Origin: a virus
Lineage: Duplodnaviria > Heunggongvirae > Uroviricota > Caudoviricetes
Length of the DNA stretch: 5,473 nucleotides
IMG/VR virus record: IMGVR_UViG_2778261058_000013
Strand: one strand, 5' to 3'
Shown here piece after piece: positions 2,153 to 5,473 of the stretch; positions within the stretch are counted from its first letter, which is position 1; each line of letters starts with the position of its first letter. The position numbers and the translations under genes were made by a program. Below the pieces are notes generated by a model, which saw nothing but the letters and a program-made list of their open reading frames with translations, ran no database searches and was not told where the DNA came from.

Positions 2153-2384
2153 AACCCCCCCCATTTTCACAATCAGCAATCAGGATGGCTTTAGCCTCAT
2201 TCAGTGCCATATCAGCACTAAATTGCATAACAGCCAGTGAGTGAGGAACGAAAGCCCCGGCATATTCTGTTTCGCTGGTGGCGTGCTTATGTGCCCTGTC
2301 CGCGATAACAGAAATATCAATCAGCGCGTGCATTAGCGTTTTGATGGCTTCGGCGGCTGCGTCCGGCGTGTTTTTATTGCACAT
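2145..2384 (-). CDS. Hypothetical protein (79 aa)
   Basis: ORF-track ORF; ATG 2384..2382 preceded by AGGGGG with a 6-nt spacer and overlapping the 3' end of the upstream 68-aa ORF; translation MCNKNTPDAAAEAIKTLMHALIDISVIADRAHKH...CENGGGYA, ending just after the G8 tract. Confidence 0.5.
   Translation of the reverse strand: MCNKNTPDAAAEAIKTLMHALIDISVIADRAHKHATSETEYAGAFVPHSLAVMQFSADMALNEAKAILIADCENGGGYA
2155..2162 (-). repeat. Homopolymeric G8 tract (C8 on plus strand) at the junction of two small ORFs
   Basis: Read directly: ataaCCCCCCCCatttt on the plus strand; on the coding strand it encodes the GGG near the C-terminus of the 79-aa ORF. Confidence 0.95.
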
Positions 2385-2580
2385 GGTGCACCCCCTGGCG
2401 AATACGGGCGGCGAATACCATCACGCAGCCAGCCGGTGATTGCTGACGGGCTTCCTGTTCGCTGGTGGCCTCAATGGTAATCATGCGCGGTTGTGCCGTG
2501 CTCAGAGCGATAAAACGCCAGATATATTTATTCAGGTTGTGCGAGTCCCGCCCTTGCGGGTGTGTGGTATGATTTAACAT
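2374..2580 (-). CDS. Hypothetical protein (68 aa), first gene of the minus-strand small-ORF operon
   Basis: Internal ATG at 2580..2578 of the long ORF-track frame 2374..3492, preceded by GAGGT with a 5-nt spacer; translation MLNHTTHPQGRDSHNLNKYIWRFIALSTAQPRMITIEATSEQEARQQSPAGCVMVFAARIRQGVHHVQ. The longer upstream extension is rejected. Confidence 0.45.
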   Translation of the reverse strand: MLNHTTHPQGRDSHNLNKYIWRFIALSTAQPRMITIEATSEQEARQQSPAGCVMVFAARIRQGVHHVQ

Positions 2581-2676
2581 AGCTACCTCGATACTGTTGC
2601 TATCGTTGGTGGTTAGAAGCCCCGTTACTGCTCCTACAGTGCGGGGTTTCGTCGTTTCTGTGCCTTGCATTAACAA

Positions 2677-2759
2677 GGTGTAAGACACAATGTAAAATAC
2701 AAGTGTCTTACACGTCAAGCCTTCAAAATAATTTTTTTTCGTGTATATTGTCTTACACC
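2677..2759. promoter_or_regulatory. Divergent promoter region with three copies of a 12-bp operator-like motif (core TGTCTTACAC)
   Basis: GGTGTAAGACAC at 2677..2688 (inverted) and GTGTCTTACACG at 2703..2714 form a palindrome with a 14-bp spacer; a third copy TTGTCTTACACC lies at 2748..2759. On the plus strand a putative -35 TTCAAA (2722..2727) and -10 TATATT (2744..2749) are 16 bp apart; on the minus strand a putative -35 TTGACG (2718..2713) is followed by TACATT. A T8 run sits at 2732..2739. Confidence 0.5.
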
Positions 2760-2779
2760 AACAACATAAGGAGTTAGAC

Positions 2780-2959
2780 ATGGCAACAGGTCCAAAGAAT
2801 GCAAAATCACAATCTGTAACTGCACGTATTGCCCATGAAATTATTGAAGGCATGGAAAACGTGAAAGAAGAAGGCGAAAGTACAGGGCAGTTTATAAGTG
2901 CAGCCATGCGCGGCGAGATCAAACGCCGCCAGCGTCGCAAGGCCAAAGAGCAGGAGTAA
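2780..2959 (+). CDS. Small basic protein (59 aa), possible ribbon-helix-helix-type DNA-binding regulator
   Basis: ATG at 2780 preceded by a consensus AAGGAG (2768..2773) with a 6-nt spacer; translation MATGPKNAKSQSVTARIAHEIIEGMENVKEEGESTGQFISAAMRGEIKRRQRRKAKEQE. The ORF-track start at GTG 2741 lies inside the promoter and is less likely. The RHH assignment is a guess from the N-terminal pattern. Confidence 0.6.
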   Translation: MATGPKNAKSQSVTARIAHEIIEGMENVKEEGESTGQFISAAMRGEIKRRQRRKAKEQE

Positions 2960-3016
2960 CCATCACTAGCGCCGTGGAGTGATGAACTGTGGCGCACAGG
3001 GTTACAGGTATATACG

Positions 3017-3214
3017 ATGACTGACAAATCATTAAAGAAATTATCCTCATCCAGGAAAAAACAACGCAAAAATGCGGTAAGCGAACAAGAACAGGAAAGA
3101 TTCGCACCTTGTTCGTTTGCTCTTGAGAAATTCCTTAAAGAGTACAGGCGCACAAAAATGGGATCGCATGCCTGGAAAACATCGCAGCATGGCGATACTA
3201 AAGAGCAGGAATAG
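3017..3214 (+). CDS. Hypothetical small basic protein (65 aa)
   Basis: ORF-track ORF; ATG 3017 with a weak AGGT 7 nt upstream; lysine/arginine-rich N-terminus; same strand as and immediately downstream of the 2780..2959 gene. Confidence 0.4.
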   Translation: MTDKSLKKLSSSRKKQRKNAVSEQEQERFAPCSFALEKFLKEYRRTKMGSHAWKTSQHGDTKEQE

Positions 3215-3317
3215 CCCACCAGCAAGCCAGCACACTGATCACATTGCCCACCAGCCGCAAATGTGGCATTGTTGGCTATGCTCATGCGTTGGGGATAACG
3301 TGTAGCTTGTGTCGAGG

Positions 3318-3346
3318 GGCCACCGTAGCGGGTGGCCTTTGTTTTG
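3318..3346 (+). terminator. Rho-independent terminator for the plus-strand small-gene pair
   Basis: Perfect 7-bp stem GGCCACC (3318..3324) / GGTGGCC (3331..3337) with 6-nt loop GTAGCG, followed by TTTGTTTTG. Confidence 0.5.
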
Positions 3347-3362
3347 CCTGTTATCCGGCAAT

Positions 3363-3392
3363 TGTGGCGCTTCGCCACACGGTTGATATAAT
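3363..3392 (+). promoter_or_regulatory. Candidate promoter: perfect palindrome next to a consensus -10 hexamer
   Basis: 7-bp inverted repeat TGTGGCG (3363..3369) / CGCCACA (3373..3379) with loop CTT, followed by consensus TATAAT at 3387..3392; weak -35 TTGTGG at 3362..3367 with a 19-bp spacer. Confidence 0.3.
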
Positions 3393-3441
3393 TCCCCTGC
3401 ACTGATCCATTTTTTTCGCAGCAGGTTAATTGTTCGCAAGG

Positions 3442-3466
3442 GCGCTCCGGCAACGGGGCGCTTTTT
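3442..3466 (+). terminator. Rho-independent terminator-like hairpin on the plus strand
   Basis: Stem GCGCTCC (3442..3448) / GGGGCGC (3455..3461), seven pairs including one G-U wobble in RNA, loop GGCAAC, followed by TTTTTGTT. The minus strand has no U-tract after the stem. Confidence 0.45.
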
Positions 3467-3496
3467 GTTATGTTCATCGCGTTACGCCTCACACCA

Positions 3497-3703
3497 TTAC
3501 GCAGCCGTTCCGCGCGCTTCTTCCTCGCGCTCTTTCAGCCAGGCCAGCACTTCATCTTCATACCAGCCAACACGGCGCAGACCGATTTTGAAGCCTTTCG
3601 GGAATTTTCCGGCGTTGATCATGTCCTGTAGCGAACTGTCTGCCTTGATGCGCAGAATATTTTTTACTTCCTGACGGGTAAGAATTTTTCTGATTACTTC
3701 CAT
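3497..3703 (-). CDS. alpA: AlpA/Vis-family phage transcriptional regulator (excisionase-like helix-turn-helix protein)
   Basis: ORF-track ORF; ATG 3703..3701 preceded by GAGGT with an 8-nt spacer; translation MEVIRKILTRQEVKNILRIKADSSLQDMINAGKFPKGFKIGLRRVGWYEDEVLAWLKEREEEARGTAA has the size (68 aa) and pattern of the AlpA family, and the gene sits in the expected position beside the integrase. Confidence 0.85.
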   Translation of the reverse strand: MEVIRKILTRQEVKNILRIKADSSLQDMINAGKFPKGFKIGLRRVGWYEDEVLAWLKEREEEARGTAA

Positions 3704-3767
3704 CGTGTTTTACCTCGTTAATACGGCGTATTCCGGTGATAAATACGGTAAAACAGGGCAGGGCGGG

Positions 3768-3810
3768 AAAAACAGTACTCACCGTTTTAAAACGGTACTC
3801 ACTGTTTTTT
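3768..3810. promoter_or_regulatory. Two tandem 20-bp near-palindromic repeats upstream of alpA (candidate regulator-binding sites)
   Basis: AAAACAGTACTCACCGTTTT (3769..3788) and AAAACGGTACTCACTGTTTT (3789..3808), 18/20 identical; each unit has partial dyad symmetry (AAAACNGT...ACNGTTTT). A possible degenerate third copy lies near 3741..3760. Confidence 0.4.
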
Positions 3811-3835
3811 ATCTCATTGATTACGCTTTCTTTTT

Positions 3836-3868
3836 GCAAAAAAATAGCGACCGCAAGGGGCCGCTATT
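3836..3868 (-). terminator. Rho-independent terminator after the 80-aa ORF and integrase transcription unit
   Basis: Stem AATAGCG (3843..3849) / CGCTATT (3862..3868) with a GC-rich interior; on the minus strand the stem is followed by a U7 tract (A-run 3838..3844 on plus); begins 5 nt past the stop at 3873. Confidence 0.55.
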
Positions 3869-3872
3869 GTGA

Positions 3873-4115
3873 TTACCGTTTCCACTTCTTAGGTCGCCCA
3901 CCACATTTAAGGCTGGTGGGCCTCAGCACCTTGTCGATGCTTTCAGCCAGATTTTTCGATGCGCCACGCGAGCGTAAAAAACTGACTACCTCGTGTTTTG
4001 TGGGGGCTGTTGATTTGTCTTCCGGATCGTATGTTGACCAGAATTCACGATTTGCCATTAACGCCAGTTGCAGCCCTTCGCCGCAAGCAGGGGATACCTT
4101 TTCATTGAAAAACAC
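3873..4115 (-). CDS. Hypothetical small protein (80 aa) with a basic GRPKKWKR C-terminus, between the integrase and alpA
   Basis: ORF-track ORF with a GTG start at 4115..4113 preceded by a consensus AAGGAG (4129..4124) and an 8-nt spacer; an alternative internal ATG gives MANREFWSTYDPEDK. Translation ends ...LKCGGRPKKWKR. Confidence 0.5.
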   Translation of the reverse strand: MFFNEKVSPACGEGLQLALMANREFWSTYDPEDKSTAPTKHEVVSFLRSRGASKNLAESIDKVLRPTSLKCGGRPKKWKR

Positions 4116-4171
4116 CTGGATAGCTCCTTGAATTTCATGATTTGGGTGACTCCTCTCTGTATTGGGTGGGT

Positions 4172-4210
4172 TGTGGCGATTATACGATGGTTTAGCATGG
4201 TTTGCATCGC
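4172..4210 (-). promoter_or_regulatory. Candidate sigma70 promoter for the 80-aa ORF
   Basis: Consensus TATAAT on the minus strand (plus 4184..4179) with a weak -35 ATGCAA 17 bp upstream; lies in the 116-bp gap between the integrase stop and the ORF's ribosome-binding site. Confidence 0.3.
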
Positions 4211-4231
4211 TTTTACTGGTTTTTTGTACAG

Positions 4232-5473
4232 TTACACGGCACGGATACCCCTTTTACCACTGGCTATGGTCACTCCGGTAGCTGCGGCCTCTACAAATTC
4301 CCCCCACCAGCGCATAAGCACCACGCGCTTTTCCAGGTAGTTACTTCTGTTATATGCCCGCCTTACCTCGTTCGTGTCCACGTGTGCGAGTGCGGCCTCG
4401 ATTACGTCCGGCTCGAATCCTTCCTCGTTCGCTGCTGTACTGAATATGGCGCGTAATCCGTGAGACACCAGCACACCAGCGTATCCCATCCGGCGCAATG
4501 CAGCGTTAGCGGTCTGGCTGCTCATTGGCAGCATTGGATTTTTAAGGCTGGGAAAAACATGTTCCCTGTGTGCGCTGATTGGCTTCATGGTTTCCAGTAC
4601 AGCCATAGCCTGACCGCAAAGGGGGATCACGTGGTCACGGCGCATCTTCATGCGTCCGGCTGGAATCGTCCATGTTTCGGCATCGAGATCTATTTCTTCC
4701 CAGCGTGCGGCGGCTGCTTCGGCTGGGCGTGCTACGGTCAGCAGTTGCCACTCAATCAGCAATCTGGTTTGCCGTTCTATGCTGGCGACCGATAAATCGT
4801 GCATTAGCTGCGGTAGCTGTTCCGGTCGGATGGTTGGCATGTGCTTTTTGGTGGGTGAGGGGAATGCCTTGCGGACGTTCGCGGCGGTGTTGATGTCAAT
4901 CAGCCCACTGTTGGCAGCAAAATCCATCACTTCATTGATGCGTTGTAAAACGCGTTTCAGGGTTTCCAGGTTGCCGCGTGCTTTAATGGGGGTGAGTATC
5001 TCAACAAAGCGGCGAGCTGTGAGGGTATCTATTGGCGTGTTTCCGATGTACGGGAATACGTATTTTTCCAGGGATCGCCAGATATCCTTAATCGTGTTGT
5101 AAGCCAGATTCTGGCCTTTTTTCATCTCGTACCAGTCCGAGGCAACTTTTTCGAACGTGTTGCCCTTTTTCCGACTCTCTGCTTCACGTTTCCGGCGTTC
5201 GTGGTCCTGTGGGTCAACTCCCTTCGCTATGAGTGACCTGTATTCATTCCGTCGTTCTCTGGCATCGGACAGGGAAACATCATTCAGCGATCCGAGGCTG
5301 ATGATAGTCCGTTTTTTATCTGCCGGGCGGTAGTACGTAAAACGCCAGATTTTTGATCCGGAGGGTTTCACCAGAAGAAATAATCCTCCACCATCCTGCA
5401 GGGTGTATTCCTTTTCCCCTGGTCGTGCGTTTTTGATCTCCGTAATGGTTAGTGGGGTGGTTTTTCGTGCCAT
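4232..5473 (-). CDS. int: Site-specific tyrosine recombinase, P4-type phage integrase (413 aa, complete)
   Basis: ORF-track ORF; ATG at the window edge (5473..5471). The N-terminus MARKTTPLTITEIKNARPGEKEYTLQDGGGLFLLVKPSGSKIWRFTYY is typical of the arm-binding domain of P4-like integrases; the C-terminal domain has the HxLR motif (VSHGLRAIF) and a catalytic-Tyr context (RRAYNRSNYLEKR). Confidence 0.95.
   Translation of the reverse strand: MARKTTPLTITEIKNARPGEKEYTLQDGGGLFLLVKPSGSKIWRFTYYRPADKKRTIISLGSLNDVSLSDARERRNEYRSLIAKGVDPQDHERRKREAESRKKGNTFEKVASDWYEMKKGQNLAYNTIKDIWRSLEKYVFPYIGNTPIDTLTARRFVEILTPIKARGNLETLKRVLQRINEVMDFAANSGLIDINTAANVRKAFPSPTKKHMPTIRPEQLPQLMHDLSVASIERQTRLLIEWQLLTVARPAEAAAARWEEIDLDAETWTIPAGRMKMRRDHVIPLCGQAMAVLETMKPISAHREHVFPSLKNPMLPMSSQTANAALRRMGYAGVLVSHGLRAIFSTAANEEGFEPDVIEAALAHVDTNEVRRAYNRSNYLEKRVVLMRWWGEFVEAAATGVTIASGKRGIRAV

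Follow-up and report, generated by a model that had tools for sequence, protein, structure and literature searches.

How is transcription of alpA, the master switch of the phage-inducible chromosomal islands (PICIs) of Gram-negative bacteria, controlled by the DNA that precedes it? This question is raised by a stretch of 5,473 nucleotides from the IMG/VR virus record IMGVR_UViG_2778261058_000013 (Caudoviricetes), referred to here as the window, which represents an Escherichia coli PICI/P4-like satellite at tRNA-Pro (best E. coli match, locus L001, 98% identity). Genes of the alpA type have been published as self-activating and helper-induced, but in the literature searched neither AlpA binding sites, for any PICI, nor the helper signal have been mapped. 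In the window, alpA is preceded by two tandem 20-bp repeats that constitute a delimited and strongly conserved 40-bp candidate operator with the alpA-proximal unit as primary site. Most likely, the block is a repeat operator that precedes the master regulator gene of a mobile element, and thus a clearly bounded case of a type of element that is already familiar.

The repeat block consists of two 20-nt copies, arranged head to tail at 3769-3788 (AAAACAGTACTCACCGTTTT) and 3789-3808 (AAAACGGTACTCACTGTTTT), with a start-to-start spacing of 20 and 18/20 identical positions (90%). The original prediction, made from the sequence alone, had described the same two adjacent units, and a repeat search returned its coordinates at a level beyond that of shuffled sequences: no tandem 20-mer with at least 18/20 matches was present in 300 shuffles, and for the degenerate unit AAAACNGTACTCACNGTTTT the window has two matches where 0.01 would be expected, a number reached in 0/200 shuffles (two or more matches). 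The position of the repeats between the terminator of the upstream unit and alpA was equally confirmed, with a terminator-like hairpin on the minus strand (3868..3843) on one side and the start codon of alpA (3703) on the other.

The units had further been described as individually near-palindromic. Each does contain a dyad, but it is imperfect (arms 6/7) and secondary to a symmetry that spans both units, in which 22-nt arms are 82% complementary. The units differ at two positions (A/G and C/T), and just these substitutions allow the left arm of one unit to pair perfectly with the right arm of the other; the 4-nt cores (ACTC on the + strand), which are direct and not inverted, alone break the 40-bp symmetry. 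Across homologues, 97% of the cells of the long dyad are paired versus 92.4% for the within-unit dyads. The 40-bp dyad is thus the dominant symmetry. It is built from four ACNGT pentamers, which on the + strand occupy 3772-3776, 3781-3785, 3792-3796 and 3801-3805, i.e. offsets of 0, 9, 20 and 29 bp (9-11-9 spacing). The sense strand reads A5-ACAGT-GAGT-ACCGT-T4 A4-ACGGT-GAGT-ACTGT-T5 and includes an inner perfect palindrome, ACCGT-N6-ACGGT, with 11-bp spacing. In window-type sequences, units and cores are direct repeats, yet the N positions of the pentamers follow an inverted pattern. Within the window, ACNGT-N4-ACNGT is confined to the repeat block (0.08 expected), and no other copy of the motif was found in the element, e.g. 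before the ash/icd operon or near att. The surrounding region 3766-3842 has a GC content of 32.5%, versus 50.8% for the window, and its A/T tracts are phased at roughly 20 bp.

For assessing conservation, alpA upstream regions were gathered from divergent E. coli genomes, from contigs with AlpA homologues, and from IMG/VR and metagenomes, the latter loci being found by a conserved leader word that excludes the repeats. The collection comprises 93 loci with 38 distinct sequences, and the conservation alignment contains the 23 distinct two-unit sequences, single-unit forms being left out. In this alignment, the half-sites and tracts of the proximal unit are invariant at 16/17 columns, while its core is invariant at 1/4 and reads G(A/G)G(T/A) except for one TGGT variant. 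The distal half-sites are mostly conserved (10/17 columns invariant), but the distal core has no invariant position among its four and occurs in eight variants (GAGT, GGGT, GGTT, GGAT, GTAT, TCTA, TATA and GCC). The spacer beside the repeats is invariant at 0/12 columns, and synonymous third positions of alpA show 57-80% identity between the same lineages. Because the proximal unit is near-invariant while the spacer and the synonymous sites have diverged, the repeat block is judged to be under purifying selection. BLAST similarity to divergent E. coli elements stops at the outer repeat edge (query 1-120 or 1-132 of 3690-3880), and in 3/93 loci (L006, L036 and one other) precisely 20 bp are deleted, so that just one unit, of the proximal type, remains. 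The alignment indicates that the alpA-proximal unit is the primary and most constrained one and the distal unit a secondary one, and the combination of conserved half-sites with a free 4-nt core has the appearance of protein-binding half-sites.

Conservation in homologues had been proposed as a check of the original prediction, and the repeats are indeed kept. Its regulatory reading stands in part: the repeats are real, lack a canonical promoter, and are better conserved than their flanks and the synonymous sites of alpA, but the motif is absent from phage genomes and from the rest of the element. The roles that it had proposed, i.e. binding sites for AlpA itself or for a helper-phage-encoded activator, are of the right kind and partly supported; as an interpretation, it is reasonable but unproven.

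The most obvious candidate for a protein that binds these half-sites is the product of the downstream gene. The AlphaFold2 model of AlpA (pLDDT 80) is a winged helix consisting of three helices and a beta wing, and its top Foldseek matches are BldC (6ama), the GIsul2 excisionase (8c3t; TMq 0.74, rmsd 1.3), RdfS (8dgl) and Xis of mycobacteriophage Pukovnik (4j2n). The E-values of these matches are weak (>=0.04), as expected for a 68-aa query. AlpA is thus predicted to have an excisionase/BldC-like winged-helix fold. Regulators of the BldC and excisionase type usually assemble cooperatively on arrays of short, phased sites, and BldC and lambda Xis bind phased direct repeats. The locus has two features expected of an operator array for such a regulator: the putative cognate protein has a predicted excisionase-like fold, and the sites are short, phased at about one helical turn and conserved relative to their flanks.

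Comparison with other alpA alleles may link the repeats to the regulator. In the Salmonella/enterobacterial loci L023 and L113 the leader is otherwise non-alignable, yet it contains AC(C/T)GTGAGGG ... CCCTCACGGT at -132..-97, a distance from alpA similar to that in the window, with about 0.06 copies of the 8-mer expected per locus. The inverted pair of L023/L024 and L113/L114 has the core ACNGTGAG in common with the window units, and this inverted repeat folds at -19 kcal/mol without a U tract. The AlpA recognition helix (residues 22-31) of this lineage is the one closest to that of the window, reading LQDMINAG in the window and FQDMINAG or LQDMINAG in L023/L113. The window type and this distant lineage have the core motif ACNGTG(A/G)G in common. 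Alleles with a different recognition helix have other repeats. Salmonella loci L115-L118 carry a third alpA allele (65-69% identical protein), with eight direct copies of AAACTTCCA that fill approximately 40-260 nt upstream. In EcCICFT073 (island at 1377930-1388654 of CFT073), the int-alpA spacer contains overlapping direct copies of ACAACNNGNA with 10-bp phasing (L122 29187-29246), and GACACAAYCC repeats are located just before the ribosome-binding site (RBS) of alpA (L122 29456-29497). The EcCICFT073 repeats are candidate AlpA sites in a PICI that has been studied experimentally. Allele-specific repeats of this kind would fit a cognate regulator-operator pair. An AlpA-seeded protein scan of genomes retrieved only remote relatives in unrelated bacteria.

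The original prediction had noted no convincing sigma70 -35 element in the alpA leader, which agrees with the promoter searches. No sigma70-like site was found in 3300-4300, and a relaxed scan gave at most 7/12 matches (4+3 or 3+4) in window-type sequences, none of them position-conserved across homologues. The AT-rich spacer 3809..3842 offers weak promoter-like hexamers only (TTGCAA 3839..3834, 17 nt, TGAGAT 3816..3811). The missing sigma70 promoter fits an activator-dependent one. On the alpA side of the repeats, the invariant word TACCGT (3750..3745) might serve as an atypical -10 element, since it has the -11A and the -7T, or alternatively represent a fifth ACNGT pentamer. If it is a -10 element, transcription would start at approximately 3737/3738, the two units would be centered at -41.5 and -61.5, and the C-rich stretch 3757..3768 would be the promoter spacer between -35 and -10. 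In this predicted geometry, the units would occupy the places at which activators of class II (-41.5) and class I (-61.5) classically bind. The C-rich stretch is identical at 4-6/12 positions between window-type sequences and the L002, L003, L014 and L018 lineages, and at 11/12 in the window-type locus L016.

Further downstream, a leader hairpin is predicted in all types. Its 3' arm (3714..3706, GGUAAAACA) overlaps the Shine-Dalgarno (SD) sequence GAGG at 3716..3713, and one compensatory swap (AU:12, UA:7) distinguishes window-type from L002-type sequences, which suggests translational occlusion of alpA. As a separate observation, the alpA allele of L109-L112 has a clear sigma70 promoter (TTGACT-17-TATTCT) and keeps (T)TTACCGT about 10 nt into the transcript. 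Because the word is retained in this transcript, TACCGT is conserved across alleles, whatever its role. The leaders of L004 and L054 contain a 10-bp tandem duplication (CACCGGAATA).

Taken together, we see about an even chance that the repeats are an operator array to which AlpA binds and that the alpA promoter depends on an activator. The operator would present the four ACNGT pentamers, in their 9-11-9 spacing, on roughly one helix face, with A/T tracts flanking and separating them. AlpA would first occupy the near-invariant proximal unit (sense ACGGTG(A/G)G(T/A)ACTGT) and then the weaker distal unit, and would in this way aid RNA polymerase at a promoter that lacks a -35 element and has only an atypical -10. 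The initial pulse of alpA expression would come from helper-phage induction, through a factor that may use the same sites, and positive autoregulation would turn this pulse into full induction of the island. In this scheme, it is an inference that AlpA is the protein bound, and so are the stoichiometry of binding and the geometry of the promoter. The scheme is in line with published work on related islands: in EcCICFT073, AlpA activates a PalpA-lacZ fusion and lysogens of lambda or phi80 induce alpA (PMC6092414), and EcCIMP1 shows AlpA activation and helper induction alike, with an alpA deletion mutant that still responds to the helper (PMC11773190).

Several points weigh against an AlpA operator array. 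The link to AlpA is one of context and analogy, no second copy of the motif having been found elsewhere in the element, and the correlation between alleles and motifs could come from common descent of the whole alpA module. The auto-activation observed in EcCICFT073 does not transfer directly because that island has different repeats. The best-conserved symmetry is a dyad, whereas excisionase-like proteins usually bind head-to-tail direct repeats; the dyad would suit a symmetric dimer or tetramer of another protein. At the RNA level, moreover, the block can form a stable hairpin that ends in a U tail. As for the promoter, neither it nor the transcription start of alpA was located in the leader scans, TACCGT matches the -10 consensus at only 3/6 positions, and its use as -10 element would leave the 5' arm of the covarying SD hairpin untranscribed.

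The block could instead be the operator of a protein other than AlpA, to which we assign a small but appreciable chance. Such a protein could be a helper-phage inducer that acts as P2 Cox or Ogr do on the P4 promoter PLL, a repressor of the satellite (the product of the 80-aa open reading frame between int and alpA, ORF80, or the YlcI/YnfO-like protein) whose removal by the helper would derepress alpA, or a host dimeric regulator. The 40-bp dyad with its inner ACCGT-N6-ACGGT is typical of symmetric dimers or tetramers, and at the equivalent P4 promoter the helper proteins Cox and Ogr are the activators; their sites were confirmed in the P4 sequence. Since the helper induces alpA without AlpA (PMC11773190), some other factor must act on the region. 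Yet no Ogr/Delta, Cox, CII, LexA, CRP (exact match only) or IHF consensus was detected in 3700-3880, and a BLAST search of 50,697 phage genomes with 3705-3875 found no relevant match to the motif. There is thus no sign of a phage regulator that would have operators of this sequence in its own genome. Moreover, in an IMG/VR scan for AACGGTGNGNACTGTT, which returned many chance matches, the full 20-mer was confined to this satellite family among the matches listed. A more specific form of the idea, which seems unlikely, is that the block senses the helper: an early protein encoded by the helper, of the excisionase/Cox type for example, would bind the ACNGT array by itself or jointly with AlpA and switch on the otherwise silent alpA promoter.

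Within the satellite, ORF80 is a candidate alternative binder that is apparently expressed independently. It has 42 invariant columns, its own terminator, a good SD sequence (AAGGAG-N7-GTG) and a possible promoter with a perfect TATAAT -10 element at 4184..4179, and its model is a three-helix bundle with a basic tail (GGRPKKW). Of its 13 homologues, the named ones are all from E. coli except for one labelled as a nematode assembly (P0018). Nonetheless, a recognizable DNA-binding protein was not found in it, as Pfam, PHROG, NCBIfam and PDB gave no sequence match and the fold search no significant match. Divergence does not discriminate between the two proteins either, as ORF80 and AlpA are equally diverged (68% each) between lineages that share the repeats. 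RefSeq annotates ORF80 as a 61-aa version only.

The repeats may also act as RNA, which we likewise hold to be unlikely. Transcription from upstream of 3810 would allow the units to form a long hairpin followed by UUUUU at the 5' end of the leader, which would serve as attenuator, terminator or stability element and, together with the SD-occluding hairpin, silence alpA as long as no factor is at hand that prevents termination or unfolds the RNA. The sense strand indeed folds at -17.4 kcal/mol (z = -5.5; 0/200 shuffles as stable) ahead of U5, and a terminator scan flags the minus strand at 3797..3780. Besides the high degree of pairing in the long dyad given above, the systematic non-Watson-Crick combination is G-U on the sense strand (GU:13 / AU:9, columns 21-50), and C-to-U changes in L004 and L113 also yield wobble pairs. 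In addition, the compensatory swap in the SD hairpin argues that the leader reaches at least to the 5' arm at 3755. These observations are countered by the covariation analysis, in which the repeat hairpin shows double changes in one pair only, a covariation term of 0.04 that was equalled in 9/500 shuffles, and pair types that are no more numerous than in shuffles; given how alike the sequences are, covariation does not separate an RNA from a DNA role. Several singleton variants break pairs, and a conserved proximal core beside a free distal one is unlike the prediction for a symmetric internal loop. The stem is AU-rich and contains an internal loop, single-unit variants such as L006 keep only a 9-bp, mostly A-U stem, and the inverted repeat of the L023/L113 type has no U tract. 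Furthermore, there is no conserved promoter upstream of the repeats, and no Rfam family was matched at E <= 1 anywhere in the window. The precedent of the P. aeruginosa AlpA antiterminator concerns a different, larger, 21Q-like protein (PMC9371919). Leader hairpins of L109 and L111 were considered as support for an attenuator and discarded, because their folds are no better than those of shuffles.

It is in our view quite improbable that the repeats have no sequence-specific function. They would in that case go back to an ancient tandem duplication of 20 bp, the leader around them, AT-rich and intrinsically curved, would be silenced by a nucleoid protein such as H-NS, and regulation would occur elsewhere. 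The low GC content and phased A/T tracts of the region would be compatible with such an origin, as would the natural one-unit losses in 3/93 loci, and H-NS binds and silences the alpA promoter of the Shewanella prophage CP4So (PMC8034616). However, G/C-containing pentamers and a proximal core that stay near-invariant beside fully diverged flanks are unexpected for mere AT-richness or curvature, and the core motif is kept in a rearranged, inverted form in the distant lineage L023/L113.

The interest of the block lies in its location, because it sits where the helper-phage signal of Gram-negative PICIs must act; the helper inducer of alpA was explicitly not identified in the 2018 ISME J study. 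If the block is a sensor, it would be the cis-element for the inducer and could be used as bait to find it. If it is only an autoregulatory site for AlpA, it would be a routine addition to known regulator-operator pairs.

Among characterized systems, the closest parallel is the PLL promoter in front of vis in P4. In both cases, the promoter is the first of a leftward satellite operon, the first gene encodes an AlpA/Vis winged-helix protein (AlpA versus P4 Vis, 35% identity over 37 aa, E = 7e-9), a usable -35 element is missing, and short phased repeats lie upstream (P4 9176-9205). PLL is activated by P2 Ogr and P4 Delta through TGT-N12-ACA and by P2 Cox through 10-bp boxes, and both the TGT-N12-ACA dyad and the tandem 10-bp Cox boxes are present in the P4 sequence. 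Helper-encoded as well as self-encoded proteins are reported to act there (Saha et al. 1989; Polo et al. 1996). An Ogr/Delta- or Cox-type P2/P4 late promoter was rejected for the window, because TGT-N12-ACA and TTAAAGNCA are absent from both strands of 3700-3880. In contrast to P4, the window repeats are ACNGT-based 20-bp units with an overall dyad, the upstream DNA is non-alignable, and the distance to the start codon differs (-66..-105 in the window versus -103..-178 in P4). A 12-nt identity, ATTAACGAGGTA, was also seen over the RBS of alpA (3711-3722) and of P4 vis (L198 9037-9048), which could be fortuitous or else be left over from a leader that both once shared.

The PICIs EcCICFT073 and EcCIMP1 resemble the window element in the order int, alpA, opposite-strand YlcI/YnfO-like gene, icd-like gene, DUF4222 and primase, in a PF05930-type alpA, and in having repeats upstream of it, and several downstream proteins are identical between the window element and its PICI relatives. 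Both of these islands, for which alone the activation of alpA by AlpA and by the helper has been shown experimentally, have other alpA alleles and other upstream repeats than the window. EcCICFT073 in particular differs by a 62-aa alpA allele and by the absence of both ORF80 and a terminator before alpA.

With the arrays of lambda Xis and BldC, the window shares the fold class of the protein, the 20-bp spacing of X1 and X2, a sub-site periodicity of about 10 bp, and adjacent A/T tracts. The lambda sequences X1 and X2, which we take to be the Xis sites, are direct repeats 20 bp apart. Xis and BldC arrays are strictly head-to-tail and located near att or promoters, whereas the window pentamers are self-complementary and form a dyad that is not beside att. 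A match to the X1/X2 consensus was rejected, as it has only CTGTTTTTTAT in common with the repeat block.

The AlpA antiterminator of P. aeruginosa, which is not a homologue, shares the name and the arrangement of a positive regulator whose target promoter has a terminator-like hairpin downstream. Its family has been described as 21Q-like, with an element between -35 and -10 (PMC7969949, PMC9371919). It was dismissed as a model because it is a different protein with eight helices, a 21Q-like nature and DNA contacts at residues 128-142 (PMC9371919), compared with 68 aa here, and no ABE-like GGGACG-N5-GGTA was found in the alpA upstream region.

The wider setting is that of a satellite island. 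Locus L001 places the window in a chromosomal island adjoining tRNA-Pro and yejM, with the order integrase, small hypothetical gene, AlpA-type regulator, two small opposite-strand genes (one of the YlcI/YnfO family), ash and icd-like genes, DUF4222, DUF927 primase, SSB, PerC, and terminase small subunit. This layout is that of Gram-negative PICIs and P4-like satellites, whose module of a tyrosine integrase at a tRNA, an AlpA-family gene in the same orientation and a primase/replication block is present here. The features around alpA are compiled below.

Table 1. Positions in the window of alpA, its upstream repeats and the neighboring features
Feature	Position	Strand	Description
40-bp near-palindrome with A/T tracts	3768..3810	n/a	dyad center 3788/3789
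alpA-proximal unit	3769..3788	-	sense AAAACGGTGAGTACTGTTTT; ACGGT and ACTGT around core GAGT
alpA-distal unit	3789..3808	-	sense AAAACAGTGAGTACCGTTTT; pentamers AC(A/G)GT and ACCGT; core free to vary
Variable C-rich spacer, repeats to leader block	3757..3768	-	0/12 invariant
TACCGT within conserved block TTTACCGTATTT	3745..3750	-	invariant in unbiased loci L001-L018
Leader hairpin (predicted)	3706..3755	-	arms GUUUUACC ... GGUAAAAC; 9/9 complementary
AT-rich spacer, terminator to repeats	3809..3842	-	length of 33-34 nt conserved, sequence not (two types)
Terminator-like hairpin and T run ending the ORF80 unit	3868..3843	-	10 pairs, 5 G-C, loop of 6
alpA	3703..3497	-	68 aa; PF05930, E = 4.5e-8; PHROG 'excisionase and transcriptional regulator'; gene controlled by the repeat region (putative)
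ORF80 (80-aa open reading frame)	4115..3873	-	conserved small gene between int and alpA
int	5473..4232	-	PF00589, PF13356

Homologues of the other type have a different but equally good terminator at the position that corresponds to 3868..3843. Two small + strand genes, 2741-2959 and 3017-3214, converge on alpA; one encodes a protein of PHROG 21027, the other a YlcI/YnfO-family protein, the N-terminus of which resembles the strand of a ribbon-helix-helix fold. Both genes have a terminator-like hairpin behind them on the + strand (3315-3340 and 3438-3465), and the pair interrupts the direct alpA-ash operon that is seen in the variants L015 and L017. A 372-aa open reading frame on the - strand (2374-3492) has an implausible composition and overlaps these + strand genes, and a RefSeq pseudogene annotated as 'ash family protein' spans about half of it (roughly 2620-3210), so that a degenerate ash/eta gene is more probable here than a genuine reading frame. 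Outside the window and upstream of int, the interval from tRNA-Pro to int contains several copies of TAGCTA(Y)AC (L001 11832-12040), and these are probably arm-type sites of the integrase that are unrelated to the alpA repeats.

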